Assembly: GCA_949296705.1 (NCBI GenBank)
Contig: CASFOW010000035.1
Coordinates: forward strand, 1 to 63,918
Length of the DNA: 63,918 nt
Direction: 5' to 3'
From: an uncultured bacterium
GTDB lineage: Bacteria; Bacillota_I; Bacilli_A; RF39; UBA660
Shown: in pieces, positions 3,782 through 57,726 of the stretch
How the letters are laid out: every line of letters begins with the position of its first letter
Numbering within the stretch: position 1 is the stretch's first letter
The notes under the pieces: generated by a model
Told to the model about the DNA's origin: nothing
What the model saw: only the letters and a program-made list of their open reading frames with translations
Databases searched by the model: none
Made by a program: the position numbers and the translations under genes

Positions 3782-5332
3782 TTAAGAATGACTAGATTGT
3801 CCAAGTTCTTGTAGCTTTTTTTCTTTATCCATTCTTAAAAATAATGGCTCTGGTTTAGAAACCGTATAAACTAAATTGTCAACAAATTTTCTAGAATCAC
3901 ACGTTGTATTTAATTGTTTTTGAATATTTAATGCCGTATCTGGTAAGAATGGCGCTAAAAATAAACTAGAAACACGGATTGATTCTAATAAATGATATAA
4001 AACCGTAGCTAAGCGAGTCTTTTTCGTCTCATCTTTAGCTAAAGCCCAAGGCAAAGTTTCATCAATATATTTATTACTACGACGAAGTAAATTAAATATT
4101 TCATCAAGAGCTGACCCAATCTCTAACTTTGCCATCTTCTCCTCTACTTTATCCTCTAATTGATCAATCATTCCTAATAACTCTTGATCAATTTCTTCGC
4201 TAACTTGTAGATTGCTTACTTCACCATCAAAATATTTCTGTACCATCGAAATCGTCCGATTAACCAAATTACCTAAGATATTCGCTAAATCACTATTGGT
4301 TCTTTCAATTAATAAATCATAAGTAAATACACCATCACTACTAAAAGGAATCTCATGTAATAAATAATAGCGGACAGCATCAACACCGAAATGTTCAACT
4401 AAATCATCAGCATAAACAACATTCCCTTTTGATTTACTCATCTTTCCATCTCCCACAATTAACCATGGGTGACCAAATACTTGTTTAGGAAGTGGTAAAT
4501 CTAAACTCATTAAAAAGCAAGGCCAATAAATCGTATGAAAACGAATAATATCTTTACCGATTAAATGTAAATCAGCTGGCCAATATTTATTAAACTCATC
4601 AGTACTGCCATCAGGATCATAACCAATATTAGTAATATAATTCGTAAGCGCATCTAACCACACATAAACAACATGCTTAGGATCAAAATCTACTGGAATT
4701 CCCCAATCAAAAGAAGTTCTAGATACACATAAATCTTGTAAGCCTGGCTTCAAAAAGTTATTCAACATTTCATTTTTTCTAGATTCTGGTTGAATAAAAT
4801 CAGGATGAGTTTCGATATACTCAATTAAACGATCTTGATACTTAGAAAGTCTAAAGAAATAAGCTTCCTCGCTCTTCCTATTTACTTCTCTACCACAATC
4901 AGGACACTTACCATCCACTAATTGACTTTCTGTAAAGAAAGACTCACAAGGTGTACAATACCACCCTTCATATTTTCCAAGATAAATATCCCCTTGATCC
5001 ATCATTTTCTTAAATATCTTTTGAACGATTCTTTCATGATGTGGATTAGTAGTTCGTACAAAGCGATCATAACTAGTATTCATAACATCCCAGATTCTTT
5101 TAATTTCAGTTGCGACTTCATCAACAAACTGTTTCGGTGTAGTACCAGCTAGCTCTGCTTTCTGTTGAATTTTTTCCCCGTGTTCATCAGTACCAGTCTG
5201 AAAATAAACTTCATACCCTTTAAATCTTTTATAGCGTGCAATCGCATCAGCTAAAACAATCTCATAAGTATTTCCAATATGAGGTTTTCCAGAAGTATAA
5301 GCAATTGCGGTTGAAATATAATATTTTTCCAT
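3782..5332 (-). CDS. metG: Methionyl-tRNA synthetase, short form without the C-terminal tRNA-binding domain
   Basis: HIGN and KMSKS motifs, Zn knuckle CTPC..CPDC, YVWLDAL. Start moved to 5332 (MEKYY). Confidence 0.97.
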   Translation of the reverse strand: MEKYYISTAIAYTSGKPHIGNTYEIVLADAIARYKRFKGYEVYFQTGTDEHGEKIQQKAELAGTTPKQFVDEVATEIKRIWDVMNTSYDRFVRTTNPHHERIVQKIFKKMMDQGDIYLGKYEGWYCTPCESFFTESQLVDGKCPDCGREVNRKSEEAYFFRLSKYQDRLIEYIETHPDFIQPESRKNEMLNNFLKPGLQDLCVSRTSFDWGIPVDFDPKHVVYVWLDALTNYITNIGYDPDGSTDEFNKYWPADLHLIGKDIIRFHTIYWPCFLMSLDLPLPKQVFGHPWLIVGDGKMSKSKGNVVYADDLVEHFGVDAVRYYLLHEIPFSSDGVFTYDLLIERTNSDLANILGNLVNRTISMVQKYFDGEVSNLQVSEEIDQELLGMIDQLEDKVEEKMAKLEIGSALDEIFNLLRRSNKYIDETLPWALAKDETKKTRLATVLYHLLESIRVSSLFLAPFLPDTALNIQKQLNTTCDSRKFVDNLVYTVSKPEPLFLRMDKEKKLQELGQSSHS

Positions 5333-5336
5333 TTTT

Positions 5337-5825
5337 TTACCCTTCTTTCCTATCGGTAGAGCCAAACCCATTCACTCTTTTTCGAGTAACTTCTTCTTCA
5401 CCATCTACCGTTAAATATTTAATAAATATCATTTGACAAATCTTATCTTTACGATGTACTACATAGTCAGTATCTCCACAATTCTGTAAACATATCCAGA
5501 TATGTCCTTCATTTTCTATATTATTATAATAATCAGAATCAATGACACCAACTTGGTTACACATTCGTACCTGCGAACGAATTCCTTGACTACTACGAAT
5601 CATCATCAATAGTACTTCATCAGGATTCATACAAGCCTTAATACCTAAGGGAATCTTCTTTATCTCGCCTGGAGCTAAAACAAAATCAATTACTGATTCT
5701 CCATCATAACCAGCACTTTTCTTGGTTGCTCTTTGTGGTAAAGAGTATTCTTGATATAAAGAACTATCATCATTTATATCTCGTTTAAATTGTTCATAAC
5801 TAATCTTTTCAAAATATCGCGCCAT
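5337..5825 (-). CDS. dut: Trimeric dUTP diphosphatase
   Basis: All five dUTPase motifs are present (SAGYD, RSS.G, GVIDSDY, ICQ, R..GFGST). The true start is 5825; the longer ORF runs into the T-box. Confidence 0.93.
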   Translation of the reverse strand: MARYFEKISYEQFKRDINDDSSLYQEYSLPQRATKKSAGYDGESVIDFVLAPGEIKKIPLGIKACMNPDEVLLMMIRSSQGIRSQVRMCNQVGVIDSDYYNNIENEGHIWICLQNCGDTDYVVHRKDKICQMIFIKYLTVDGEEEVTRKRVNGFGSTDRKEG

Positions 5826-5844
5826 GCTCTTCATCACCCTCCAT

Positions 5845-6060
5845 AAAAAAACGACTTTCTCGCCTATAAGGACGAAAAAATCGCGGTACCACCTTACTTT
5901 ATGAATCAATATCCATACTCTTAACTTCTTAACGCGAATAACGAATAAACCTACCTATCGATCTATCAGTTCCAGAACCATCTATCATACTTCCTTTATA
6001 TCTCCTTTCACCACCCGAGACTCTCTTATCATAAATTCCATATGACTCTTTCTTTCAAAA
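5845..6060 (-). promoter_or_regulatory. T-box riboswitch, probably Met-specific
   Basis: The minus strand has Stem I motifs AGAGAG and GGTGGTGAA, a candidate ATG specifier at 5979-5981, the T-box AAGGTGGTACCGCG, and a terminator CGATTTTTTCGTC..GGCGAGAAAGTCG-T7. It lies upstream of dut-metG. Confidence 0.92.
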
Positions 6061-6093
6061 CTTTTATATCTAGAAATTATATCATAAAAATTT

Positions 6094-11706: not shown

Positions 11707-12276
11707 CTATTTCTTATTTTTCGTATTATATTTAGACATTAACGAATCAAAGGGTAAAATAAAATAATCATCTAAAACTAACATAACAGTATCAATTACA
11801 GTTTCTAAACGTTGACTATCTTCCTTTGATAAGCGTCCCAAAACATAATCTTTAGTATCTATAGATTTATCATTAGAAATACCAATTTTAATTCGTTTAT
11901 ATTCCTGCGTTTTTAAATGTAATTCAATATTTTTTAAACCATTATGACCAGCTGGGGAACCTTTTTTCTTGATTCTAAAATTTCCTAATGGTAAATCTAA
12001 ATCATCATGAATAATTAAAATATCGCAGGTAGAAATATCAAAAAAATCTACATATCGACGAATAACTTCGCCACTTAAATTAATATAAGATTGAGGTTTA
12101 AGTAAAATTACTTTTTCTCCATGAATAAAACATTCGCCATATAAACCAGAAAACTTAGATTTACAAATAGAACAACCAACCTTTTTAGCGAAAGTATCTA
12201 AAGTCATAAAGCCAACATTATGACGAGTATGTTCGTACTCTTTACCAGGATTGCCTAATCCAACAATTAGTTTCAT
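11707..12276 (-). CDS. pth: Peptidyl-tRNA hydrolase
   Basis: LIVGLGNPG..Y..TRHNVGF, HDDLD and GHNGLK motifs. Confidence 0.98.
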   Translation of the reverse strand: MKLIVGLGNPGKEYEHTRHNVGFMTLDTFAKKVGCSICKSKFSGLYGECFIHGEKVILLKPQSYINLSGEVIRRYVDFFDISTCDILIIHDDLDLPLGNFRIKKKGSPAGHNGLKNIELHLKTQEYKRIKIGISNDKSIDTKDYVLGRLSKEDSQRLETVIDTVMLVLDDYFILPFDSLMSKYNTKNKK

Positions 12277-12315: not shown

Positions 12316-12341
12316 AAAATTATTTCCCGGGAAATAATTTT
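12316..12341. promoter_or_regulatory. Noc-binding site (NBS) within a perfect 26-bp palindrome
   Basis: AAAATTATTTCCCGGGAAATAATTTT. The core matches the B. subtilis NBS TATTTCCCGGGAAATA. Confidence 0.85.
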
Positions 12342-12352
12342 CAACTATAAAC

Positions 12353-13195
12353 CTACTTTTGAATATGATATTCGCGGTAAACAACAGATTTAGGTAAATC
12401 ACGTTCAAGAGCTACTTTTTTTATAGCTTCTTTCTCCGTAAATCCATCCTCTATATATAAATTAACATGTTCTAATATAGATAACATGGAAAAATCCTCT
12501 TGTTCATGATTACCATCTATCACTAAAACCATCTCACCTTTTAAATCAGAAACAACAGTTAAAACTTCGGTAATCGTACCACGAATAACTTCCTCATATT
12601 TTTTACTTATCTCACGACATAAAGCCACTTTTCGATCACCTAGTATTTCAAGTAAAGAATGAAGAGTATCTTCTATTCGATGAGGAGATTCGTAAAAAAT
12701 CAGTGTACAAGGATAATTCTTTAAAGTAGTTAATTCTTGCTCTCTTTTTCCCTTTTTACTGTTTAGAAAACCATAAAACAAAAAGGGAGCGGGCGATAAC
12801 CCAGACATTGTAAGGGCCGGAACAAAAGCTGTCGCCCCAGGTAAACTAACAACAGGAAAACCTGATTCAATTACATATCGACTAACCCGATACCCAGGAT
12901 CACTAATAATAGGTGTTCCCCGATCAGTAACTAAACCAATTATCGCCTTATCTTTTAAACGCTCTACTACCATCTGTTTAACCTGCTCTTCATTATGATC
13001 GTCACAGTGAATTAACCTTTTCTTTATATGTAAATAATTTAATAACTCTCTAGTTACTCTAGTATCTTCACAGAGAATAAAATCAACTTGCTCTAATAAG
13101 TGAACAGCTCGCAAAGTAATATCTTCCATATTTCCAATTGGCGTAGGAATTAGATACAAAATAGATTCTTCTTGCGCATAACTTTTCTGTCTCAT
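12353..13195 (-). CDS. rsmI: 16S rRNA C1402 2'-O-methyltransferase
   Basis: LYLIPTPIGNMEDIT.RA, CEDTR, GTPIISDPG, FYESPHR motifs. Confidence 0.97.
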   Translation of the reverse strand: MRQKSYAQEESILYLIPTPIGNMEDITLRAVHLLEQVDFILCEDTRVTRELLNYLHIKKRLIHCDDHNEEQVKQMVVERLKDKAIIGLVTDRGTPIISDPGYRVSRYVIESGFPVVSLPGATAFVPALTMSGLSPAPFLFYGFLNSKKGKREQELTTLKNYPCTLIFYESPHRIEDTLHSLLEILGDRKVALCREISKKYEEVIRGTITEVLTVVSDLKGEMVLVIDGNHEQEDFSMLSILEHVNLYIEDGFTEKEAIKKVALERDLPKSVVYREYHIQK

Positions 13196-19299: not shown

Positions 19300-19319
19300 A
19301 TATATTCTCCCAAAAAAAA

Positions 19320-19394
19320 GTGCACATAAATATAAAATGTTAAGGCTGCTATCTTCCGATCCTGACCTGGTTCCATCCATATTTATTGCACATC
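19320..19394 (-). ncRNA. ffs: Signal recognition particle RNA (small 4.5S-type)
   Basis: Domain IV CAGGTCAGGATCGGAAGATAGCAGCC within a long hairpin closed by GTGCA/TGCAC and followed by a T-run. Confidence 0.9.
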
Positions 19395-19410
19395 AATATT
19401 TTAATATATT

Positions 19411-19463
19411 TTATCCACAATTTCAATAAAAATACAAAATTTTCTATTATTTTTTTATCCACA
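19411..19463 (+). promoter_or_regulatory. Two perfect DnaA boxes at the left edge of the array
   Basis: TTATCCACA at 19411-19419 and 19455-19463; a third at 20692-20700 near the right edge. Confidence 0.75.
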
Positions 19464-19473
19464 ATTTAATTAG

Positions 19474-20744
19474 AATGTTTCACGTGAAACATTGGGTATA
19501 AAATTATTTCCCGGGAAATAATTTATATCTATTTAATCAATAAACATCTCTAAATGTAGTCACAATTATATTCTTTTAAACTTTATGCAATAGATCAACA
19601 TTTATCTATAAATATTAATCATCTATAAAGCATTATTAAAAAGGAATAAAGAAAGTTAACATTAATTTTTCAATGTTTCACGTGAAACATTGGGTATAAA
19701 ATTATTTCCCGGGAAATAATTTTGTGAAATATATCAAAGTACAAACAAATAATTTGAATACTTAAACAAAGAATTTAGGCTAATTATACAATCTTTTGGT
19801 ATTAATAGAACCAAATGTATTATCTGTAAGAACATAAGCTAATACAAATTTAAATATTTCAAAAAATTAAACACAAATAAATAACATTTTTCAATGTTTC
19901 ACGTGAAACATTGTGCATAAAATTATTTCCCGGGAAATAATTTATAGCTATTTTATTCAATAGATATCTTTAAATTCAGTCACAATTATATTCCTTTAAA
20001 CTTTATACGATAGATTAACATATATCTATAAAGTAAATAACATATTAATCATCCATAGACTTTCTTAAAAAGAAAATAAAGAAAGTCAATAATGGTTTTT
20101 CAATGTTTCACGAGAAACATTGTGTACAAAATTATATACCGGGAAATAATTAATAGCCATTTTATTAAATAGATATCTATAATTCAGTCACAATTATATT
20201 CTTTTAAACTTTATACGATAGTTCAACATTTATCTATAAATATTATTCATCTATAAGACATTATTAAAAAGGAATAAAGAAAATCAAGAATAATTTTTCA
20301 ATGTTTCACGTGGAACATTGGGTATAAAATTATTTCCCGGGAAATAATTTTGTGAAATAAATCAAAGTACAAACAGATAATTTGAATACTTAAACAAAGA
20401 ATTTAGGCTAATTATACAATCTTTTGGTATTAATAGAGCCAAAAGTATTATCTATAAGAACATAACTAATACAAATTTAAATATTTTAGAAAAAAATTAA
20501 ACATAAATAAATATACTTTTTCAATGTTTCACGTGAAACATTGTGCACAAAATTATTTCCCGGGAAATAATTTATATCCATTTAATCAATAAACATCTTT
20601 AAATTCAGCACAATTAAATTCCTTTAAACTTTATGCGATAGATCAACAATTATCTATAAAATAAGTAATAGTTATCAATACAAATAAAGTTTTATCCACA
20701 AAAAAACATAGATCAATTATGACCTATGTTTCACGTGAAACATT
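19474..20744. repeat. Tandem array of parS/NBS modules with 198-223 bp period and ~628-bp higher-order unit
   Basis: parS TGTTTCACGTGAAACA at 19476, 19674, 19895, 20104 (variant), 20302 (variant), 20525 and 20727. NBS TATTTCCCGGGAAATA at 19505, 19703, 19924, 20133 (variant), 20331 and 20554. Spacers are homologous. Confidence 0.95.
20701..20733 (-). terminator. gyrA intrinsic terminator overlapping the last parS
   Basis: AAACATAGATC-AATTAT-GACCTATGTTT hairpin, followed by a T-run on the minus strand. Confidence 0.7.
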
Positions 20745-20750
20745 AAAATT

Positions 20751-23195
20751 TTATTCCACATTTTCTACTTCTTCCACTTCCGATTCAGGGGCACTATCAA
20801 TTACGGATACAGTCGCGACTCGCTGATCCTCCTTCAAATGAATTAATCTCACTCCTTGTGTAGCTCGTTTAAGTGTAGAAATCTGATCCATTGGCATCCT
20901 CATGATTATACCGTTGTCAGTAATAATAATTAAATCATCAGCATCTGTAACAGCTTTCAAAGAAACCATATTTCCATTCTTTTCAGTTATATGCAAAGCC
21001 ATAACTCCCTTGCTACCACGATGAGTTAATCGATATTCATCAACCTCAGTTTTCTTACCATAACCATTAACAGTAACAACTAAAATCTTTTGAGAATTAT
21101 CCACAACTTCGCCACCAACAGTAATCGCACCATCTAATTCCATTCCTTTAACACCAGAAGCAGTTCTTCCCATTACCCGAATTTCTTTTTCACTAAATCT
21201 AACCATACGTCCGTTCGATGCACCTATCAATACTTCGTTCTCACCTGTCGTTTTACGAACTGAAATTAATTCGTCATCTTCTTTTAACGTTATAGCCAGC
21301 TTACCACTTGATCTAATATTATCAAATTCAGATAAATTCGTCCTTTTTACCAATCCATTCTTAGTAATAAACAACAAATAATTAAACGAATGTTCGCTAG
21401 CTTCCAGAGTAACAACAGAACTTATATATTCTTCTTTCTCAAGAGGAAGTAAATTAATAATCGGTAATCCCTTGCTCTGACGACTGTATTCAGGAATTTC
21501 ATAACCTTTCATCCGATATACTTTGCCCTTATTCGTAAAGAATAAAATATAATCATGAGTACTCATATTGATCATCTTTTCTACAAAATCCTCTTCATTA
21601 GTTGTCATACCTTTTATTCCTACACCACCGCGATTTTGTGTACGATAAGCATCAACTGGCATACGTTTAATGTATCCTTTATTCGTTAAAGTAATCAAAG
21701 TCTGTTCTACCGGAATTAAAGACTCATCTTCAATATATTCAATAGCAGTCATATCAATTGTTGTTCTACGTTCATCAGCATATTTATCTTTAATTTCCAA
21801 TAATTCGTTCTTAATAACTTCCAAAATCTTTTCGTCACTACTCAAAATTAACCTTAGCTCCCCTATCAACTTTAATAAGTCAGCCAATTCATTTTCAATT
21901 TTTTCTCGCTCTAATCCAGTTAACCTTCTTAATTTCATCTCTAAAATCGCATTAGCTTGAACCTCTGATAAACCAAATTTCGACATTAAACCAGACCGAG
22001 CTTCATCATCAGAATTAGCTGCTTTAATTAGCTGAATAATTTCATCAATATTATCAAGAGCTATCTTCAACCCTTCTAAAATATGAACACGTTTCTCTGC
22101 ATTTTCCAAATCAAAACGAGTTCTACGAATAATTACTTCGCGTTGAAAATCAATATATTTAGCGATAATATCCTTTAATCCTAATGTTTTAGGAACACCT
22201 TGATCAAGCATAAGGAAAATAATACCATAACTAACTTGGAGACTAGTATGCTTATACAATTTATTCAAAACAACCTGGGCATTAGCATCCTTCTTCAAGG
22301 TAATCGTAATCTTAATGCCATCTTTTAAATCTGAATGATAATCTGAAATTCCCTCAATTGTCTTATTATGAACAAGTTCAGCAACTTTATTTTTTAAATC
22401 TAAAGTATTAATTCCATAAGGTACTTCTTCAATAATAATATAGTGTTTGCCATTCTTTTCCTCAATATGAGCCTTACTGCGTATAGTAATAGAGCCTCTA
22501 CCTGTTTCATATGCTTTTCTAATACCACTATTTCCTAAAATAGTAGCACCAGTAGGAAAATCAGGTCCTTTTACATACTGCATTAATTCATTTAACTCAA
22601 TGTCTGGATTATCAATATAAGCAACACAACCATCAATAACTTCACCCAAATTATGAGGCGGGATATTTGTAGCCATCCCAACAGCAATACCTGTAGTACC
22701 ATTTACTAAAATATTAGGAAATCTAGAAGGTAAAACAACGGGCTCCTTTGTAGATTCATCAAAGTTTGGAATAAAATCAACCGTATTTTTATTGATATTT
22801 CTAAGTAACTCCAAAGAAATCTTCGAAAGTCTAGATTCTGTGTATCGCATAGCAGCAGCGCCATAACCTTCAATATTTCCGAAGTTACCATGACCATCTA
22901 TCAACATGTAACGATAAGAAAAATCTTGAGCCATTCTTACCATAGCTTCATAAATAGAAGAATCACCGTGTGGGTGATAATTACCCATAACTTCACCGAC
23001 AGTTTTCGCACTTTTTTTATGAGGCTTATCTGGCGTATAACCAGACTCATACATAGAATATAAAATTCGACGATGAACAGGTTTTAAACCGTCACGAAGA
23101 TCAGGAATAGCACGTGCAGTTATAACACTCATCGAATAATCCAAAAAAGAATCTTGTACTTCTTTTACAATATTATTGTGTTCTAATCTATCCAT
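20751..23195 (-). CDS. gyrA: DNA gyrase subunit A
   Basis: [22 protein letters not shown] (catalytic Tyr), GyrA-box QNRGGVG. Confidence 0.99.
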
Positions 23196-28084: not shown

Positions 28085-28207
28085 ATATAATTATTATTAT
28101 TATTACTGTGGAAACTGTGGATAACTTGTTTTTTTCTATATTATATCATGTTTTTTTTCGTTTTCCACCTGTGGATAATCATGTTGATAAAAAATAGTTT
28201 TCAACAA
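28085..28207. other. oriC: oriC, dnaA-dnaN part (unwinding region)
   Basis: The minus strand reads TTATCCACA-GTTTCCACA-G-(TAA)5-TTATATA: tandem DnaA boxes (28107-28124) followed by DnaA-trio-like repeats and an AT-rich tract. A further box lies at 28170-28178. Confidence 0.9.
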
Positions 28208-29581
28208 TTATACAATTTCCTTCTTTAATTTTTCGATAATATTCGCAAGTTCTTGGTTGGTTTGCATCTCTTTTTCTACTTTTTCGACAGAATGCATAAC
28301 AGTGGAATGATCTTTTCCACCAAATTCTATTCCTATTTTAGGAAAAGATTCGTTAGTAAGTTTTCTACAAAGATACATGGCAACCTGTCTTGGAAAGGCT
28401 AGATTAGCACTTCTTTTTTTACTTTTCATATCATCGACTGATATTTGGAAATGTTCTGCGACTATTCGCTGTATCCGATTGATATTGTTTTTTTCACTAT
28501 ATCCTTTATTTACATAGTCTTTTAATACTTCTATGGCTAAGTCGAGTGTAATATCGGCTCCTCCCATAATTGTCGAATACGCTAGTAATCTGGTAATAGA
28601 CCCCTCTAAATGTCGAACATCACTACCAACATTGGAGGCAATATAGTCAATAACATCGTCTGGAATATTCTTATCGATAGAATCACCAATGATTTTTTTC
28701 TTGATGATCGCCACTCTAAGCTCGAAGTCAGGGGGATAAATATCCGCTGTTAGTCCCCAACAAAATCTTGTTCTGAGCCTATCTTCTAGTAGTTTTAAAT
28801 CATCCGGAGATCGATCTGAGGAAATAATAATTTGCTTATTCTCATTATATAAGGTAGTAAACGTGTGAAAAAACTCATTCTGTGTTTGAGTAGCTCCTTG
28901 AAAAAACTGAATATCATCGATGATTAGCACATCAATATTTCGATACTTATCTTTAAAATAACTGACATAATCGAAATTTTGACCAAATTCATCTTTTTTA
29001 TTTATTCCAAGAAAATCGTTAATAAATTGATCACTCGGTACATATAATACCTTTTTATTAGAATGTTGTTCAATATAATTTCCGATGGCATGCATTAAAT
29101 GAGTCTTACCTAGCCCACTATTTCCATAGATAAATAAAGGATTATAAATATTGCCTGGATTTTCTGCTACATCCATTGCAGCGGCTTGTGCAAATTTATT
29201 GCTATTTCCAACAATGAAGTTATCAAAGGTATAGTTAGGATTCAGATTGGATTGATGGCGTCTTTCTAGCTTCGGCTCCCCTACTACTTCTTTTGGTTCA
29301 AAAGCCTTTGGTTCAGGTGTTTTTTCCACTTCTAACTCTTCTTTCAGGTAAAACTGAATATCGACGTTGTCTCCAACAATATCACTAAGTGTATTCACAA
29401 TTAAGTCGTAGTATTTTGTAGCTAAATGCCGTTTGAACATCCCCATAGGAACAATAATTTTGGCTACTCCATCTTTATACTCGTAAAGTTCAGTATCTTT
29501 AAACCAAGTATTATAAGAAAGAGGAGTCATTTCGTTTTGAATACTGTTTAAAAAGTTTGCCCAAATCATTTTGACGTTCAT
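28208..29581 (-). CDS. dnaA: Chromosomal replication initiator DnaA
   Basis: YNPLFIYG.SGLGKTHL, LIIDDIQF, GGKDHSTV motifs. Start moved to 29581, behind an AGGAGG RBS. Confidence 0.99.
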   Translation of the reverse strand: MNVKMIWANFLNSIQNEMTPLSYNTWFKDTELYEYKDGVAKIIVPMGMFKRHLATKYYDLIVNTLSDIVGDNVDIQFYLKEELEVEKTPEPKAFEPKEVVGEPKLERRHQSNLNPNYTFDNFIVGNSNKFAQAAAMDVAENPGNIYNPLFIYGNSGLGKTHLMHAIGNYIEQHSNKKVLYVPSDQFINDFLGINKKDEFGQNFDYVSYFKDKYRNIDVLIIDDIQFFQGATQTQNEFFHTFTTLYNENKQIIISSDRSPDDLKLLEDRLRTRFCWGLTADIYPPDFELRVAIIKKKIIGDSIDKNIPDDVIDYIASNVGSDVRHLEGSITRLLAYSTIMGGADITLDLAIEVLKDYVNKGYSEKNNINRIQRIVAEHFQISVDDMKSKKRSANLAFPRQVAMYLCRKLTNESFPKIGIEFGGKDHSTVMHSVEKVEKEMQTNQELANIIEKLKKEIV

Positions 29582-29629
29582 ACTACTCCTCCTACTTCTA
29601 ACAAATTGCAAGAATTATTGTAACGTAAA

Positions 29630-29820
29630 ACTGTGGAAAAATAAACTCTAAATTTCAAAAAAAATTAAATCCACAGCTAATCCACAAGTAATTCACAGAT
29701 TTATCCACAACTTTTTCTTAGAAAATAAAAAAGAAATCACTTCTTATCCACAATTTTGAAAAATTTTTAATTCACATAGTGGAAAAAGTTTTCAACAGCC
29801 TGTGGAAACTGTGGATAATT
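29630..29820. other. oriC: oriC, DnaA-box cluster upstream of dnaA
   Basis: TTATCCACA at 29701 and 29743, TGTGGAAAC-TGTGGATAA at 29801-29818, and several 1-mismatch boxes. Gene orientation switches here. Confidence 0.9.
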
Positions 29821-32035: not shown

Positions 32036-32060
32036 AAAATTATTTCCCGGGAAATAATTT
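32036..32060. promoter_or_regulatory. Noc-binding site, extended palindrome
   Basis: AAAATTATTTCCCGGGAAATAATTT in the jag-mnmE intergenic region (core 32041-32056). Confidence 0.85.
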
Positions 32061-33571: not shown

Positions 33572-33597
33572 AAAATTATTTCCCGGGAAATAATTTT
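33572..33597. promoter_or_regulatory. Noc-binding site, perfect 26-bp palindrome
   Basis: AAAATTATTTCCCGGGAAATAATTTT immediately upstream of the mnmG promoter (TATAAT at ~33622). Confidence 0.85.
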
Positions 33598-36216: not shown

Positions 36217-37641
36217 ATGCTAAAATACTATAAAAATGTGGTAAAGTATAATGAAAATGTCCAGTATGGACTAGGTATCATTACCGGCTGGAAATCAACG
36301 GATATGATTTTAAATCATCTAAGTGAAGAAGCTAAGAGAAAAATTGTAACCTGTGGTAATTTATACACTAAAAATGGTATTAATTATATAATAGCTAACT
36401 TGTTTTTAAATCCACAGATCACAGAATTAATTGTTTTGGAAGATTCTTCATTACAAAATGAAATGGCAGAAGGTATAACTGCTTTTTTACAATTTCTAAA
36501 CACTAACGTGTTAACTTTTGAACCAAAATTTCAATTTACAGAAGAAAACTTATTAGAATTTAGTTCCTATTTTAAAAATCATATCAGAGTAGTAAAGAGA
36601 AAAGACTTAGAAAAGGAATTAAAAGAAATAAAAATATTGGAAAAAGACTGGTGTAAAATTACCGAGATTGAAGAAAATCCTTTAGAACTCCAGCATCAAA
36701 TTCCAAGTGAAAAGGTAGGTTTTACGGTACGAGCCAATACTGTCTATGAAGCGTGGAATCGTGCCTTAAAATTAATTCACACCTATGGATACTTAAAACC
36801 ATCTGATTATGATGAAAATCAATTAGAACTAATTAATTTATCTATGATTATCAGAAATGAAGATTTGAGTGATCCAAGTATGGCTGGAATAATTGACATT
36901 ACTAAAGAAGAATTAGAAGAATATGAGAAAAGTATTCTTTCTAAAGCTGTGCCTGATGGAGTAAAATACACTTATGGAAATCGTTATCGGGATCAATTTG
37001 GGAAAGATCAATTTCAATATATGGTAGATACATTAAGAGAAAAGCCCTTTTCTAGAAGAGCGGTTGCTACTCTTTGGATTCCCGCTATCGATATTGAAGC
37101 CAAAGAGGGACCATGCCTTGACCTGTATCAAGCTATAATTGAAGGAGAATATCTTCATCTTCTTACTTATATCAGAGCTAATGATGTCTATAACGGTTGG
37201 CCTAGAAATATTTATGGGATTTTAAAAATTCAACAAGAACTATGCCAATCTCTTGGCTATCAAAAAGGCTATGTCAATACCATTGCAGGAAGTGCTCATA
37301 TTTACGAGAGGAATTTTGCAGATTTAGAAAAACGCTTGAATGAAAAAAACATTTCTTTTTGTGAAGAAGATGAAAGAGGATATTTTACCGTAACAATAGA
37401 AAATCAAGAGATTCAAGTTACTTTCTATAGTGTATCAGGTAAAGAATTACGTAAATTTACAGGAAAAAGTGCTCTTGAATTGAGAAATCAATGCACTTTT
37501 TACATCAGTAATATCGATCATGCTTTCTATTTAGGACAAGAGTTAATAAAAGCAGAATTAGCACTTAAAAATCAACTTTCCTATGTACAAGATACACAAT
37601 TAGACATAAGTTCAAAGAAAAAAATTTTAAAACTCAAGTAA
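36217..37641 (+). CDS. Thymidylate synthase-family protein with MtrA-like N-terminal and DUF4346-like C-terminal domains
   Basis: TS core: YTYG.R, SRRA, PC (catalytic Cys), RAND...GWP.N, SAHIY. N-terminal GNLYT..GINYII.NL..NP.I; C-terminal HA.YLG.EL.KAE...YVQD. Confidence 0.8.
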   Translation: MLKYYKNVVKYNENVQYGLGIITGWKSTDMILNHLSEEAKRKIVTCGNLYTKNGINYIIANLFLNPQITELIVLEDSSLQNEMAEGITAFLQFLNTNVLTFEPKFQFTEENLLEFSSYFKNHIRVVKRKDLEKELKEIKILEKDWCKITEIEENPLELQHQIPSEKVGFTVRANTVYEAWNRALKLIHTYGYLKPSDYDENQLELINLSMIIRNEDLSDPSMAGIIDITKEELEEYEKSILSKAVPDGVKYTYGNRYRDQFGKDQFQYMVDTLREKPFSRRAVATLWIPAIDIEAKEGPCLDLYQAIIEGEYLHLLTYIRANDVYNGWPRNIYGILKIQQELCQSLGYQKGYVNTIAGSAHIYERNFADLEKRLNEKNISFCEEDERGYFTVTIENQEIQVTFYSVSGKELRKFTGKSALELRNQCTFYISNIDHAFYLGQELIKAELALKNQLSYVQDTQLDISSKKKILKLK

Positions 37642-37772: not shown

Positions 37773-38900
37773 ATGGATAGAGAAGTAGTGGATTTGTATT
37801 TAGATGACATTATCCCTAACCGTTTTCAACCACGTGAAGTATTTAATGAACAGGCTTTACGAGAATTAGCTGATTCCATCCGAGCGCATGGAGTAATTCA
37901 ACCAATCATTGTCCGTAAAATAGGAGATAAATACGAAATAATTGCTGGAGAGAGAAGATATAAAGCATCAGCGATGGCAGGCCTAACTAAGATTCCGGCT
38001 ATTATTAGAAATTTAGATGATAAAGAAACTTCAAAAGTAGCTTTACTAGAAAACTTACAACGAAAAGATCTAACACCAATAGAAGAAGCGAGAACTTATC
38101 AAAAAATCCTAGAGCTAGATTCGATGACTCAAGAAGAACTTGGACGTACTATGGGAAAATCTCAAGCTTCAATTGCCAATAAAATGCGTTTGTTATCTTT
38201 ACCAGATGAAGTTCAAGAAGCACTACTTCATGACCAGATATCAGAAAGGCATGCCAGAAGTTTATTAAATTTAGATTCAAGAGAAGATCAAATCAATATG
38301 CTTCATGATATTATTGAAAAAAGAATGACAGTTAGAGAACTAGATAATGCAATTAGAAAATTAAAAGGAATAGAAGAACCGATTTCTAATGAAACTAATT
38401 CAGGAAATGTGAATTTGGAAACCAACCCAATAACTAATACTCCATCACCAATAGAAATTCCAAGTCCAGTTACTCCGTCTAATCCCACAATAAACTTGGA
38501 TAACGATATTCCTCATCCTCCAATAGACTTGCTTGCTTCATCGAATCAGGCTAGTTCTAAAGTAGAGACGGTAGAAAAAACTCCACAAGTTAATACAAAA
38601 TCGCCATCAACACCAGTAAAGAATATCTTTGTTTTAAATGATGATGAAGATGACTCATCTATGACCATAGAACCACATCAATCAACTCCAACTTCTGGAG
38701 TAAGTAACAAAAAGATTGTCCATACTGATCCAGTTGAGGAATTATTGGATGATGAAGAATTGTATTCATTAAAAGATGCAGTAAAAGAACTAAGAAGAAC
38801 AGTAAGTAATCTAGAAAATAAAGGATTTGTTATTAAAGTCGAAGAATTAGATTTCGAAAATACTTATCAAGTAGTAGTAAAAATCAATAAAGATATCTAA
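37773..38900 (+). CDS. noc: Noc-type ParB paralogue (nucleoid occlusion protein-like)
   Basis: PNRFQPR, CTP-binding GERR, HTH GKSQASIANKMRLL and ERHAR (Noc-type Q/K/R specificity residues), Noc-like C-terminal domain. Lies between rsmG and parA. Confidence 0.88.
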   Translation: MDREVVDLYLDDIIPNRFQPREVFNEQALRELADSIRAHGVIQPIIVRKIGDKYEIIAGERRYKASAMAGLTKIPAIIRNLDDKETSKVALLENLQRKDLTPIEEARTYQKILELDSMTQEELGRTMGKSQASIANKMRLLSLPDEVQEALLHDQISERHARSLLNLDSREDQINMLHDIIEKRMTVRELDNAIRKLKGIEEPISNETNSGNVNLETNPITNTPSPIEIPSPVTPSNPTINLDNDIPHPPIDLLASSNQASSKVETVEKTPQVNTKSPSTPVKNIFVLNDDEDDSSMTIEPHQSTPTSGVSNKKIVHTDPVEELLDDEELYSLKDAVKELRRTVSNLENKGFVIKVEELDFENTYQVVVKINKDI

Positions 38901-38996: not shown

Positions 38997-39806
38997 ATGG
39001 GAAAGATAATATCATTAGTAAATCAAAAAGGTGGAGTAGGAAAAACGACAACGAGTATCAATCTTTCTGCGTCTTTAGCTTACTTAGGAAAAAGAGTATT
39101 GTTAATCGATTTGGATCCTCAAGGAAATGCAACAACAGGCGTGGGTATCAATAAAGGAGATATTAGTAAAAGTGTTCACGATGTTATGACAGAAAAATGT
39201 AATGTAATCGAAGCAATTATTAAAACAAAATATAAAAATCTTTATCTTCTGCCGGCAACAATTAATTTAGCTGGTATTGATATTGAGCTTATGGAAAAAA
39301 GTAAACTGGATCAAAACTTTTCAAAGAATGTTCAATTAAAAAAAGCATTAGATCCTATTAAGGAGTCATTTGACTATATCATTATTGATTGCCCACCATC
39401 ACTCGGTTTAATTACAACTAATGCCCTAACGGCATCTAATTCTGTAATTATTCCCGTTCAGTGTGAATTTTTTGCCCTTGAAGGAATTACCCAGCTACTA
39501 AATACAATCATGTTAGCACAAAAGAATTTAAATCCTAACCTAGATATTGAAGGGGTTCTTCTTACTATGCTCGATTCACGAGCAATTCTATGCTTAGAAG
39601 TAGTAGAAGATATTAGAAGATTCTTTAAAGAGCGAGTATATAATACCATCATCCCAAGACTTGTTAGGATTGCTGAAGCTCCATCACATGGCACACCGAT
39701 CATCGCCTATGATTCCAAACACCGTGGATCGATTGCTTATTTAAATTTAGCAAAGGAAGTGATTGAAAGAAATGGAAACACAAACACAACTACAAACACA
39801 AAGTAG
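38997..39806 (+). CDS. parA: ParA/Soj ATPase
   Basis: NQKGGVGKTT, DLDPQGN, IDCPPSLG, EAPSHG motifs. Confidence 0.98.
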   Translation: MGKIISLVNQKGGVGKTTTSINLSASLAYLGKRVLLIDLDPQGNATTGVGINKGDISKSVHDVMTEKCNVIEAIIKTKYKNLYLLPATINLAGIDIELMEKSKLDQNFSKNVQLKKALDPIKESFDYIIIDCPPSLGLITTNALTASNSVIIPVQCEFFALEGITQLLNTIMLAQKNLNPNLDIEGVLLTMLDSRAILCLEVVEDIRRFFKERVYNTIIPRLVRIAEAPSHGTPIIAYDSKHRGSIAYLNLAKEVIERNGNTNTTTNTK

Positions 39807-40683
39807 AAGAAAAGCCTTAGGAAGAGGCTTAGAAGAATTATTCAATAATGAACCAATGAATTATGAAACAATCGAGGAAAAAATCATTACATCAACTCCA
39901 AAAGAAGAAATTGTAGAGTTAAATTTATCAGAATTACGTAGTAATCCTTATCAACCTCGTAAAAATTTTGATGAAAGAGCTCTTCAAGAATTAGCGAATT
40001 CTATTAAAGAATATGGTGTATTTCAACCAATAATTGCCAAAAAAAGTATAAAGGGCTACGAAATTATAGCCGGTGAAAGACGAGTAAAAGCATCAATTTT
40101 AGCGGGAAAGGAAACAATTCCAGCTATTCTTCGTGACTTTAGCGACCAAGAGATGATGGAAATCGCCCTATTAGAGAATCTACAACGTGAAAATCTAAAT
40201 GCCTTAGAGGAAGCACTTGCTTATAAAAAATTGATTGAAGAACTATCCCTAACCCAAGAAGCATTAGCCAAAAGAATTGGTAAAAGTAGAAGTCATATTA
40301 CCAATATGTTGGGAATTTTGACATTACCAGAAGAAGTAAAAGACCTAATCATGGAGAATAAATTGACAATGGGGCATGCCCGTGCATTAAGTAAATTAGA
40401 AAATCCAACAAAAATTAAAGATCTAGCTCAAAAAGTAGTAATGGAGAATTTAAGTGTTCGTCAAGTAGAAAATTTAGCTTTTGAACCAACAGAAGAAAAA
40501 AATCATAAAACGAAGAAAGTAAATATTTCTACAGAATATCGAAATATTGAGGAAAGTTTATCCGAAAAGTTAGGAACTAAAGTAAAAATTAATCATAATA
40601 AATTAGAAATTTCTTTCGTCAATCGTAATGATTTAAATCGCCTATTAGAAATAATAGGGATTGATCAAGAGAAAACCATCTGA
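39763..40683 (+). CDS. parB: ParB/Spo0J CTPase
   Basis: ParA-activating ALGRGL, NPYQPR, GERR, HTH GKSRSHI, MGHARAL. Confidence 0.97.
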   Translation: MKEMETQTQLQTQSRRKALGRGLEELFNNEPMNYETIEEKIITSTPKEEIVELNLSELRSNPYQPRKNFDERALQELANSIKEYGVFQPIIAKKSIKGYEIIAGERRVKASILAGKETIPAILRDFSDQEMMEIALLENLQRENLNALEEALAYKKLIEELSLTQEALAKRIGKSRSHITNMLGILTLPEEVKDLIMENKLTMGHARALSKLENPTKIKDLAQKVVMENLSVRQVENLAFEPTEEKNHKTKKVNISTEYRNIEESLSEKLGTKVKINHNKLEISFVNRNDLNRLLEIIGIDQEKTI

Positions 40684-55749: not shown

Positions 55750-57726
55750 CTAATTTTGTTCTAATATTTGCTCATCCTGCTCTAATAGTTCATCAAAAAC
55801 GGTATCGGTAGTAGAGGGTTCTGTTCCTTTGACATAATACATAATTTTTTTCTTTTCATCCGCATCGGTTGCCGGTTTTCCTGTAATAGGATTCACTAGG
55901 ACACCAACCACATTATTTGGTTGCTTATACCACGCATCCTCTTGGTCTTGCAAGTAACCCTCAGTTGCTTCTACCCAAATATTTCGAGAGTATTTATAGT
56001 CAGATGCCTCAATATCACGGTTATCATCATAGCCAATCCAAACCGCAGTAACAATGTTATGATTGTAGCCAATCGACCAATGATCGGTATTAGTAGTTCC
56101 ACTTTTTAAAGCTAATTTATGCTTAATTTTAGGTGCTATTCCAATTGCTGTAGGGTAATTGTAATCAATAAAAGTGGAATCATAAGTAGAAGTTAATAGT
56201 TCACTTAAAATATAAGTTAAACTTTTATTTAAAATGTTTTCTTTTTCTTCTTTATGTTCATAGAGAACATTTCCCTTTAAATCTTCTACCCTAGAAATTA
56301 AGTATCCTTCTACTTTATATCCTTCATTCGCAAATGCCGAATAAGCAGCAGCCATCTCAATAATATTGATACTAGCTGTACCTAAAGGAAGAGAAGGAAT
56401 TTCTTCTAATTCAGCAGTTATTCCTAAGCGTTTAGAAATATTGACCAAAGCATCTTCGCCTAGAAACATATGAGTTTTAACCGCATAAATATTATCAGAG
56501 TAAGAAATTGCTGTAGCTAAAGAAATTGGTTTATTCCCATATTGATCCCCATAGTTTTGTGGTGAATATGTCTGATTGTTAGAAAAAGTAAATGTAGTTT
56601 GTTCACTAGTAAACGTTGTACTTGAAGTAAAACCATTCTCTAAGGCAGCATAGTAAAGGAAAGGTTTCATCGTTGAACCAACTTGTCTTGCTGATTGATA
56701 AGCTCGATTATATTGACTTTTATTGTAATCTTTTCCTCCTACCAAAGCGAGAATTTTCCCGGTATTTGGATCCATCATGACACTAGCGACTTGTAACTCA
56801 CTATCACCCGTTAAATTATTCTTAATGCTGTTTTCTAAAATACTTTGAGCATTCATATCTAAATTAGTGTAGATTTTAATTCCCCCGGTTTCTAACAAAG
56901 ATTCTGGAATTTCTTCCAAAGAGTTCAACTCTCGCATAACCGCATCTTGATAATACATGATATTGGCTAGTTCTTGAGAATTCTTTTCTCCTACAATAGT
57001 CAATTCTTCTTCCTTTGCTTGATTGTACTCCTCTTCTGTAATTATCTTATTTTTATATAAATTATATAGAATATTTACCTGTCTTTGTTTAGCTAAATCA
57101 AAATTCACAATGGGAGAATAATTAGAAGGAGATTTAGGAATACCTGTAAGCATCGCTGCTTCTGCCCAGTCTAGTTCCGATGCATTTTTATCAAAATAAA
57201 ATTTAGCTGCATTTTGAATACCATACATTCCGTGTCCATAATTAATAGTATTTAAATACCCTTCTAAGATTTCATCTTTATCATAGTGTACTTCTAATTG
57301 TAAAGTAATCCACATTTCCTTTAACTTTCGTTCCCAAGTTTTATCAAAATCAAGAAACAAGTTTTTAGCATATTGTTGAGAAATAGTACTTGCACCTTGA
57401 CTTTTACTTCCGGAAGTAATATTCACAACCATCGCTTTCGCAATTCGTAAAAAGTCAAATCCAAAATGTTGATAAAAGTGCTTATCTTCAGTATAAATCG
57501 TCGCTTGTATTAATTTATCTGAAATATCTTCTAAATTCACCCATTCCTGTGAACCACTTCCTTGAAAAAATAGTTCATTTTGACTGTCATACATTAAAAA
57601 AGCATTTGCGTTTTTGATTTCTAATTTAGGAGACATTTTAATATAAAGAATAACACCCCCAAAAGCTAAAAGGGCAACAATCATCAATAAAACAAAAACT
57701 TTGATGACTTTTTTTAACTTCTTCAT
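55750..57726 (-). CDS. Class A penicillin-binding protein (transglycosylase/transpeptidase, PbpG/YwhE-like)
   Basis: EDKHFYQH.GFD, GASTISQQ, RKLKE; transpeptidase motifs STMK, SDN, KSG. Confidence 0.93.
   Translation of the reverse strand: MKKLKKVIKVFVLLMIVALLAFGGVILYIKMSPKLEIKNANAFLMYDSQNELFFQGSGSQEWVNLEDISDKLIQATIYTEDKHFYQHFGFDFLRIAKAMVVNITSGSKSQGASTISQQYAKNLFLDFDKTWERKLKEMWITLQLEVHYDKDEILEGYLNTINYGHGMYGIQNAAKFYFDKNASELDWAEAAMLTGIPKSPSNYSPIVNFDLAKQRQVNILYNLYKNKIITEEEYNQAKEEELTIVGEKNSQELANIMYYQDAVMRELNSLEEIPESLLETGGIKIYTNLDMNAQSILENSIKNNLTGDSELQVASVMMDPNTGKILALVGGKDYNKSQYNRAYQSARQVGSTMKPFLYYAALENGFTSSTTFTSEQTTFTFSNNQTYSPQNYGDQYGNKPISLATAISYSDNIYAVKTHMFLGEDALVNISKRLGITAELEEIPSLPLGTASINIIEMAAAYSAFANEGYKVEGYLISRVEDLKGNVLYEHKEEKENILNKSLTYILSELLTSTYDSTFIDYNYPTAIGIAPKIKHKLALKSGTTNTDHWSIGYNHNIVTAVWIGYDDNRDIEASDYKYSRNIWVEATEGYLQDQEDAWYKQPNNVVGVLVNPITGKPATDADEKKKIMYYVKGTEPSTTDTVFDELLEQDEQILEQN

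Follow-up and report, generated by a model that had tools for sequence, protein, structure and literature searches.

A composite array of parS and Noc-binding sites near the replication origin of an uncultured UBA660 bacterium

Background

ParB and Noc are a textbook pair for the change of DNA-binding specificity after gene duplication and are the best-studied CTP-dependent DNA clamps; in model organisms their sites, parS for ParB and the Noc-binding site (NBS) for Noc, lie apart and the two proteins do distinct jobs. Tandem centromere arrays are known from the sopC repeats of the F plasmid and from the parS clusters of Caulobacter, Corynebacterium, and Myxococcus, and in Caulobacter the ParA-like ATPase MipZ is recruited by protein contact and exerts origin-centred control of division. 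Here we analyzed an array in which parS and NBS alternate close to oriC, together with the two ParB-type proteins encoded nearby, ParB (P0002) and a Noc-like paralogue (P0001), in a 63,918-nucleotide stretch (contig CASFOW010000035.1, hereafter the window) from an uncultured bacterium of the UBA660 family. The source genome is a 1.58-Mb (1579-kb) draft of 83 contigs with 31% G+C and 95% completeness, and the window is one whole contig of it.

According to Jalal 2020, four positions (173, 179, 184, and 201 in the numbering of Caulobacter ParB, which is used throughout) set the preference for parS versus NBS: Q173 and R201 read the NBS-specific bases, a single lysine at 179 or 184 suffices for NBS preference, and just two positions in each half-site distinguish parS from NBS. 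Adams 2015 reports that an N-terminal amphipathic helix (amino acids 1–14) is needed for the membrane binding and function of Noc and is kept in all Noc homologues examined there. The sites of canonical Noc are numerous and scattered across one half to two-thirds of the chromosome on the origin-proximal side (Adams 2015 and Pang 2017), and Noc spreads over 8–10 kb in S. aureus and B. subtilis (Pang 2017).

Results and discussion

Paired parS and NBS form a tandem array near oriC

We scored parS across the whole window as a 16-bp palindrome fitting TGTTNCACGTGAAACA with ≤2 mismatches, and NBS as the 16-mer palindrome TATTTCCCGGGAAATA, the NBS core being ATTTCCCGGGAAAT. Seven parS were found (14 strand-matches, as expected of a palindrome; starts in Table 1), compared with a mean of 0.06 and a largest count of 2 in 100 dinucleotide-preserving shuffles of the window. 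Five of the seven were perfect and two had one deviation each: the site at 20104 has CGAG at its centre, and the site at 20302 has GGAACA in one arm, with the N position on the other strand still satisfied. Among the six NBS of the array, five were perfect (19505, 19703, 19924, 20331, and 20554) and one (20133) had two mismatches, against a shuffle mean that was likewise 0.06; array and isolated sites together give eight perfect NBS 16-mers in the window. The NBS starts 29 bp after the parS start in 6/6 pairs, the seventh parS (20727) being unpaired, and successive units measure 198, 221, 209, 198, 223, and 202 bp. These results bear out much of an earlier interpretation made from the letters of the window (the sequence-only reading), which had described seven parS and six NBS, all recovered by our motif scan, at a period of 198–223 bp, had recognized the palindromes as the parS and NBS types, and had placed them ~8 kb from oriC, whose DnaA boxes lie 7.4–9 kb from the array. 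Its set of NBS was incomplete, however, as three more perfect sites occur at 12321, 32041, and 33577.

Both site types were restricted to the origin region. All seven parS of the draft genome (≤1 mismatch) are on the array contig, the sole further parS-like match having two mismatches (contig C37), and the same contig holds all nine NBS (≤2 mismatches), which span 12321–33592 around oriC. Counted with the array as one, there are four independent NBS loci inside 21.3 kb of a 1579-kb genome, and the dispersed distribution that characterizes the Noc-NBS system is not seen here, as 9/9 NBS fall within those 21.3 kb.

Two types of unit, A (198–209 bp) and B (221–223 bp), make up the array as A B A A B A, and units 1–3 are 86.5% identical to units 4–6. 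A 45-nt module (parS, 13 nt, and NBS) is common to all units at 87–100% identity, while outside the module identity was 69–86% between A units, 93% between B units, and ~56% between A and B. The array thus grew by recent tandem duplication of ~200-bp units carrying one ancestral 45-nt module. Because the uniform 29 bp within the array is inherited from that one module, it does not represent six independent observations. No terminators were found in the array units and no Rfam RNA in the array, and promoter-like sites in the units were not enriched (23 versus 15.6 ± 4.5 in shuffles).

The window encodes two ParB paralogues with parS- and NBS-type recognition residues

The draft genome contains only two ParB-fold genes, P0001 and P0002, both of which sit 17–20 kb from the array, and the pairing of R..G (P0002) with Q,K,..R (P0001) recognition residues that the sequence-only reading had pointed out agrees with Jalal 2020. 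Specifically, P0002 has R, M, T, and G at the four positions, including the equivalents of R173 and G201, and its N-terminus carries the LGRGL ParA-binding motif (motif definition: PMC12704722); P0001 has Q, K, S, and R, a 3/4 match to the Noc set of Q173, K179, K184, and R201. The closest solved structures to P0001 are those of Noc (7ng0, E 5e-64; 7nfu; and 7ol9), ahead of Spo0J, and its CTP motifs, GERRYKA (in which K replaces the last R of GERRxRA) and ENLQR, align with the Noc structures.

P0001 departs from canonical Noc at its N-terminus, where the membrane-targeting helix is missing. The protein begins 14 residues ahead of the PNRFQPR motif, with a good ribosome-binding site and no upstream in-frame start, and its alignment to Noc chains begins at chain residue 27–28 (in the Geobacillus Noc chain 7nfu, residue 27 is matched by residue 4 of P0001). 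An AlphaFold2 model built from a 37-sequence alignment was confident for residues 1–200, predicted a disordered linker of ~120 residues (206–327), and was again confident for a small helix-strand-strand domain at the C-terminus; the C-terminal 41 residues gave a weak match to positions 215–255 of the NCBIfam Noc model (E 0.024). Among a first set of 121 close homologues, which includes the query and the window's ParB, 114 have ≤20 residues before PNRFQPR and 119 have GERRYKA, and QKSR occurs in 116 of the 120 that are left when the window's ParB is set aside. Similarly, 142 of the best 150 distant representatives from a library of 1.84 billion proteins have ≤20 residues before PNRFQPR, all of these best 150 are of the helix-less, long-linker type, and Q occupies position 173 in 112/112 of those that were pattern-parsable. 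The helix-less architecture of this Noc-like protein is hence a conserved trait. The label Noc that the sequence-only reading gave to P0001 consequently holds for its recognition residues (Q,K,..R) and does not extend to the N-terminal helix, which is absent, or to the site distribution, which is origin-confined and not dispersed. Because P0001 is without the membrane helix and has so few NBS, classical nucleoid occlusion is an unlikely function for it.

Within the best 150 representatives, length ranges from 221 to 798 aa, the linker is highly variable, and the C-terminal end EExDFxxxYQIxIKI is conserved; position 184 varies among S, N, T, and A, where canonical Noc has K.

parS and NBS co-cluster beside gyrA across the family

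We scanned public genomes, one per species, with the pattern parS-N{0,30}-NBS and obtained at least 119 loci, all of them selected by the pattern itself. In 119/119 loci listed, a homologue of gyrA, tadA, or dnaX lies beside the match (tblastn with the window proteins; gyrA in 106, tadA in 95, and dnaX in 89), and GyrA identity in these loci is 55–83%. Locus titles listed were uncultured Bacilli, 'Clostridium sp. CAG:710/417/1000', Candidatus Scybalousia, and similar bins, and some labels (Muribaculaceae, Bacteroides) look like binning errors. For the 82 listed loci with both gyrA and tadA, the median spacer is 682 bp long and has four parS and two NBS, and across these 8-kb loci, parS number 332 inside the spacer versus 47 outside and NBS 170 versus 69. 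Near one-to-one interleaving was seen in 19 of these 82 loci, and the array of the window, with seven parS and six NBS, is at the upper end. The co-cluster of parS and NBS is therefore a positional homologue across a wide group.

Frequencies were obtained from samples of genomes at three ranks. The exact pair occurs in 36/201 genomes and 26/98 genera of the order sample (5/5 within the genus), in 12/49 family genomes of the class sample versus 0/351 genomes from 29 other families, and in 5/16 family genomes of the phylum sample versus 0/384 others, the phylum sample consisting of genomes of the same class only, all small, with Bacillus-type canonical Noc hosts outside it. Within the samples searched, the pairing is confined to the UBA660 family. 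The NBS core is more widespread, being found in 86 of 100 family genera sampled, mostly at 1–5 per genome with outliers of 9 and 20; in 18/18 congeners, it forms 1–8 sites clustered within 20–25 kb, and it was found in 0/12 genomes of other families. Eight congeners that we mapped have 3–13 parS and 1–5 NBS in the gyrA-tadA spacer. The isolated NBS recur in congeners as well, before the 189-aa open reading frame (ORF), between jag and mnmE, and between mnmE and mnmG, and in distant species they occur inside dnaX.

Two further observations concern NBS elsewhere in the family. In the more distant congeners L122 (locus coordinate 1986), L123 (2577), L124 (10285), L125 (9387), and L127 (11040), the coding sequence of dnaX contains a perfect NBS, the place of which is conserved; the window's own dnaX has no NBS. 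In a different family genus (G719:C1:89140-90102), 12 or more perfect NBS cores follow one another at a 79–80 bp period, out of 20 in its genome.

Proximity of the two sites recurs, and the exact spacing does not

The sequence-only reading had called the parS-NBS distance invariant and held that a peak at 29 bp across species would support selection. The constancy stands inside the array (29 bp, 6/6), where the modules are copies of each other, and it fails in relatives: the distance is 27–29 bp in the nearest species (11–13 nt between the 16-mers), 22, 45, 76, or 82 bp in other congeners, and 16–60 bp among the family-wide loci listed. A histogram of pair distances in related genomes shows no such peak and instead has modes at 26–27, 35–36, and 45 bp and troughs at 29–30 and 41 bp; it counts each distance once per locus over the 119 loci listed, which are related and were selected for gaps of 0–30 bp. 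A selected 29-bp spacing was thus rejected on both the variation (27–29 and 16–60 bp) and the trough at 29 bp. What recurs is the proximity of the two site types, and the exact 29 bp is not in itself under selection. A ~10-bp periodicity of the spacings was matched by 5 of 5000 uniform permutations, a comparison that ignores relatedness and so overstates the signal, and it may be taken as a hint only of helical phasing. We also considered a family-wide polarity toward oriC, which was rejected as the NBS is on the tadA side in 55 of the 119 loci listed, on the gyrA side in 50, and tied in 14; pairs within the genus all have their parS nearer to tadA.

The DNA between the modules behaves differently from the modules. 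Compared with the arrays of four congeners, the inter-module spacers gave no meaningful blastn match (five matches of 21–48 nt at 78–90% identity, plus one of 16 nt), and spacer similarity was absent even in the one of these four whose GyrA is 99% identical. In the nearest congeners, the module is kept at a centre distance of 27–29 bp while the spacer DNA has been replaced. Spacer DNA evidently turns over or gets re-amplified, and parS and NBS persist.

A probable composite origin centromere and the alternatives

Overall, our data suggest that the array is probably a centromere of composite type at the origin, on which two paralogous CTP clamps, ParB and a Noc-derived paralogue, are loaded. 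It would be the single centromere region of the chromosome, a cluster of ParB loading sites ~8 kb from oriC in which nearly every parS brings along a loading site for the second, Noc-derived ParB paralogue. From what is known of these families, P0002 would load at parS as a CTP clamp, spread, and work with ParA and SMC, and P0001 would nucleate at NBS via its Q/K/R residues and likewise spread as a clamp, as its GERRxxA and ENLQR CTP motifs suggest. Because each clamp is expected to extend across kilobases, a single origin domain of ~20 kb would be common to both assemblies, and the array may serve as the co-loading or competition platform for ParB and Noc clamps that the sequence-only reading had envisaged. 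Because its helix is absent and its sites are a handful, P0001 is unlikely to hold the greater part of the chromosome at the membrane as B. subtilis Noc does; its role may be restricted to the origin, where it could organise or delimit the partition complex or couple it to initiation or division.

Several results weigh against a composite centromere. Among the family genomes sampled, only 18% contain the exact pair (gap ≤30 bp), so that adjacency is patchy, and the 119 loci listed, being pattern-selected, give no unbiased rate. Congener L125 has nine parS and one NBS, and many parS work unpartnered; NBS polarity is inconsistent across the family, as described above; and close pairs might also result simply from the crowding of the two site types into a single short spacer. 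There is no signal of co-loss, as nine of ten family genomes without an exact NBS keep a long Noc-like ORF. In 6 of these 10 genomes, Q-K-x-R was read by regular expression, and near-NBS variants were present in all five of the ten that were checked. P0001, moreover, reaches 287.5 bits with the TIGR04285 Noc model, the cut-off of which is 315, and the match covers model positions 1–199.

As a separate observation, three of the genomes without an exact NBS have a near-NBS variant ~60–300 bp upstream of the Noc-like gene (G710:C4:56256, G077:C4:28671, and G051:C1:45465, for genes at 56349, 28611, and 45758, respectively), which hints at autoregulation; no NBS-like site of this kind was found upstream of 37773 in the window.

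Proximity could instead be a functionless by-product of history, with NBS arising in place from copies of parS once parB had duplicated and hitch-hiking in the tandem duplications while the two proteins act independently. In favour of this, the two site types are set apart by two positions per half-site (Jalal 2020), the array units are clear duplicates, site number, spacing, and polarity vary freely among species, and the unpartnered parS (nine to one in L125) and the 18% frequency of exact close pairs point the same way. We nevertheless judge this explanation unlikely, as the module survives the replacement of its spacers beyond recognition even between close congeners, and as arrays with periods from ~64 to 500 bp and different spacings carry both sites, which would need repeated co-amplification; the de-duplicated spacing histogram is also not flat (the 5/5000 permutations above, with a signal that kinship inflates). 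That the array might be inflated or mis-ordered from a single parS-NBS unit by a short-read assembler seems barely credible to us, even though the genome is an 83-contig draft. Part of the array stretch was found in 20 run rows from eight studies, the records of which are mostly chicken-gut metagenomes, and in four runs from four studies (one of which may be the source sample) Logan contig pieces with 0–1 differences cover the unit-specific spacers. One run covers 19520–19630, 19693–19806, 19808–19913, 19917–20125, 20408–20545, and 20569–20660, and two pieces from a second run bridge modules, a 319-nt piece module 5 (20229–20547) and a 225-nt piece module 4 (19964–20182). Read support is partial, as no contig in the four runs spans the array and many pieces break at the shared modules; against an artefact, the units differ too much (~56% identity between A and B, 69–86% between A units) to be collapsible duplicates, and eight congeners and many genera show similar arrays on contigs of up to 388 kb.

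DnaA boxes at the array raise the question of whether the locus acts chiefly as a DnaA-box cluster, controlling replication initiation by titrating or regulating DnaA, with parS and NBS serving that control in the manner of Soj/Spo0J in B. subtilis and Noc in S. aureus, the latter of which controls initiation according to Pang 2017. Of three perfect TTATCCACA boxes around the array, two lie in its left flank, which congener L120 shares at 94.6% identity over 74 nt; the 13-nt module spacer (19492–19504 and its equivalents) fits TGTGNATAA with ≤1 mismatch in 6/6 modules; congener L123 has perfect boxes within two modules (4757–4765 and 5011–5019); and a module-spacer motif, TTGTG[GTC]A[TA]AAAT, is common to six species. 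This control function nonetheless appears quite improbable as the main one, as a perfect box is present in only 10 of the 82 gyrA-tadA spacers listed for the family, congeners with spacings of 45–82 bp have AT-rich, box-free spacers, the spacer motif coincides in part with the palindromic flanks of parS (AA..TT) and NBS (AAT..ATT), and the six modules are copies and not independent observations. We treat the DnaA boxes at the array as a genus-level addition and not as the core of the system. It is more improbable still that a different factor, such as a transcription regulator or a restriction-modification protein, recognizes the CCCGGG palindrome and that the Noc-like protein binds elsewhere. 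The isolated sites in the promoter-proximal spacers of mnmE, mnmG, and the 189-aa ORF, and the fact that perfect sites carry a longer palindrome (AAT-16mer-ATT) than the known 16-bp NBS, would suit such a factor. Set against this, the 16-mer includes the 14-bp NBS core, which occurs once in Jalal 2021; a protein carrying the NBS-specifying Q/K/R residues is present in the genome; ~0.06 matches per 64 kb are expected at 31% G+C and yet the motif is found only near oriC; in the phylum samples, it occurs only in the family whose searched genomes encode the Noc-like paralogue; and in some congeners it lies inside the dnaX coding sequence, which is no promoter position.

Beyond the composite centromere itself, we tentatively raise a wider reading, to which we give well short of an even chance: that this system is an early stage or a parallel branch of Noc evolution, in which a helix-less, NBS-reading parB duplicate stayed at the centromere and formed, with ParB, a two-clamp partition complex per origin, the second clamp coupling segregation to initiation or division, the disordered linker acting as an effector or condensing arm, and the dimers sitting on opposite helix faces. 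If so, each origin would carry a two-clamp partition complex in small, walled, FtsZ-containing cells for which no MinD was found, a function like that of ParB-MipZ would have been built from a ParB paralogue, and placement of the two dimers on opposite helix faces would underlie the modes of the spacing near 26, 36, and 45 bp.

The separate parts, namely parS, NBS, ParB, and a Noc-type paralogue, are already known. Their combination does not appear to have been described: an interleaved, two-specificity centromere, accompanied by a Noc-type protein that is helix-less and origin-restricted, and conserved across a large uncultured family. The sequence-only reading knew of no description of a coupled array, and in agreement with this, full-text searching of the literature gave none of a paired parS-NBS array, only the known Noc and ParB papers. 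The array offers a natural test bed for two clamps that load a few helix turns apart and could act as roadblocks, mix, or cooperate, and it can be reconstituted from two proteins and a 45-bp module. The P0001 system is likewise a candidate intermediate for the parB-to-noc transition and provides a lead on origin organisation in a large group of uncultured gut bacteria with small genomes.

Genomic setting and other features of the window

The array occupies the non-coding gap between gyrA and the small signal recognition particle (SRP) RNA gene, beyond which tadA, dnaX, ybaB, and recR follow (Table 1). Perfect oriC DnaA boxes lie at 28116 and 28170 on one side of dnaA and at 29701, 29744, and 29810 on the other, and across oriC the gene row continues with rnpA, yidC, jag, mnmE, mnmG, rsmG, a thymidylate-synthase-like gene, the Noc-like gene, parA, and parB. 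The genome also encodes FtsZ (420.7 bits), SMC (1010.6 bits), a DivIVA-domain protein, and five proteins with penicillin-binding-type transpeptidase domains; no MinD scored above the family cut-off in this 95%-complete genome, the only match being ParA (94.3 bits).

Table 1. Coordinates of the array, its modules, and associated features in the window
Feature	Coordinates	Strand	Description
Whole array	19476..20742		Six units (A-type ×4, B-type ×2) and terminal parS
Module 1	19476..19520		parS 19476–19491, 13-nt spacer, NBS 19505–19520
Module 2	19674..19718		parS 19674–19689, NBS 19703–19718
Module 3	19895..19939		parS 19895–19910, NBS 19924–19939
Module 3 spacer 9-mer	start 19912	-	Exact fit to DnaA-box consensus TTATNCACA
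Module 4	20104..20148		Copy in decay; 1 mismatch in parS (CGAG at the centre) and 2 in NBS
Module 5	20302..20346		parS 20302–20317 (GGAACA arm), NBS 20331–20346
Module 6	20525..20569		parS 20525–20540, NBS 20554–20569
Seventh parS	20727..20742		Without NBS; 9 bp from gyrA stop codon
Two perfect DnaA boxes (19411, 19455)	19411..19463	+	TTATCCACA; SRP-RNA side of array
Perfect DnaA box	20692..20700	+	Between module 6 and last parS
Small SRP RNA gene	19311..19397	-	RF00169, 57.8 bits; left boundary of array spacer
gyrA	20751..23195	-	Right boundary of array spacer
oriC region	28116..29818		dnaA flanked by 2 and 3 perfect DnaA boxes
dnaA	28208..29611	-	Within oriC region
Isolated perfect NBS	12321..12336		Between minus-strand ORFs 11707–12276 and 12353–13195; position conserved in congeners
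Isolated perfect NBS	32041..32056		jag-mnmE spacer
Isolated perfect NBS	33577..33592		mnmE-mnmG spacer, ~30 bp upstream of TATAAT
Noc-like ParB paralogue (P0001)	37773..38900	+	375 aa; ParB N-terminal domain and HTH, small C-terminal domain
parA	38997..39806	+	ParA/Soj-type ATPase, immediately upstream of parB
parB (P0002)	39763..40683	+	306 aa as listed; ParB N-terminal, HTH, and ParB_C dimerisation domains

The three isolated NBS lie in short intergenic spacers just upstream of the 189-aa ORF, mnmE, and mnmG, and share with the array NBS a longer common palindrome (AAT, the 16-mer, and ATT). A regulatory role of the Noc-like protein at these isolated sites, similar to that of KorB, is conceivable. 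Between rsmG and the Noc-like gene, a 474-aa ORF (36217–37641, plus strand) combines a PterinBD-DUF4346 domain with part of a thymidylate-synthase domain; such a gene is unusual at this place in the conserved gene row near the origin. Elsewhere in the window, a T-box leader (5865–6067, minus strand; RF00230, 97 bits) upstream of 190-aa and 529-aa ORFs (3782–5909) looks ordinary.

Comparison with known systems

The closest described system is Spo0J-parS and Noc-NBS of B. subtilis, with which the locus shares the 16-bp parS consensus and the 14-bp NBS core, the neighbourhood of rsmG ... noc-parA-parB next to oriC, and the recognition logic of R..G versus Q,K,..R together with the CTP-motif residues. 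It differs in that nine NBS lie within 21 kb here, six of them paired with parS, and in that P0001, compared with B. subtilis Noc, is without the N-terminal helix, has S and not K at position 184, and contains a disordered linker of ~120 residues. In its truncated start, P0001 resembles NocNΔ26 of G. thermoleovorans (Jalal 2021), as it begins where that variant without α1 and α2 begins; NocNΔ26 is, however, a laboratory construct, whereas the truncation of P0001 is natural and conserved in hundreds of homologues. An origin-related role of a Noc-type protein beyond nucleoid occlusion also has a parallel in S. aureus Noc (Pang 2017), and in this genus DnaA boxes are found in and beside the array, but S. 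aureus Noc retains membrane association and dispersed sites.

A functional analogy can be drawn with ParB-MipZ of Caulobacter, where, as proposed here, the origin complex of ParB and parS gathers a second factor, the activity of which follows the segregating origins. ParB-MipZ works without MinCD, and in the genome studied here no MinD was found above cut-off; the second factor in our case would be a ParB paralogue with its own DNA site. Lastly, the array resembles plasmid and chromosomal centromere arrays in having ParB sites that are iterated head to tail in non-coding DNA near partition genes or the origin; those arrays serve one ParB, whereas the array of the window alternates the sites of two paralogues.

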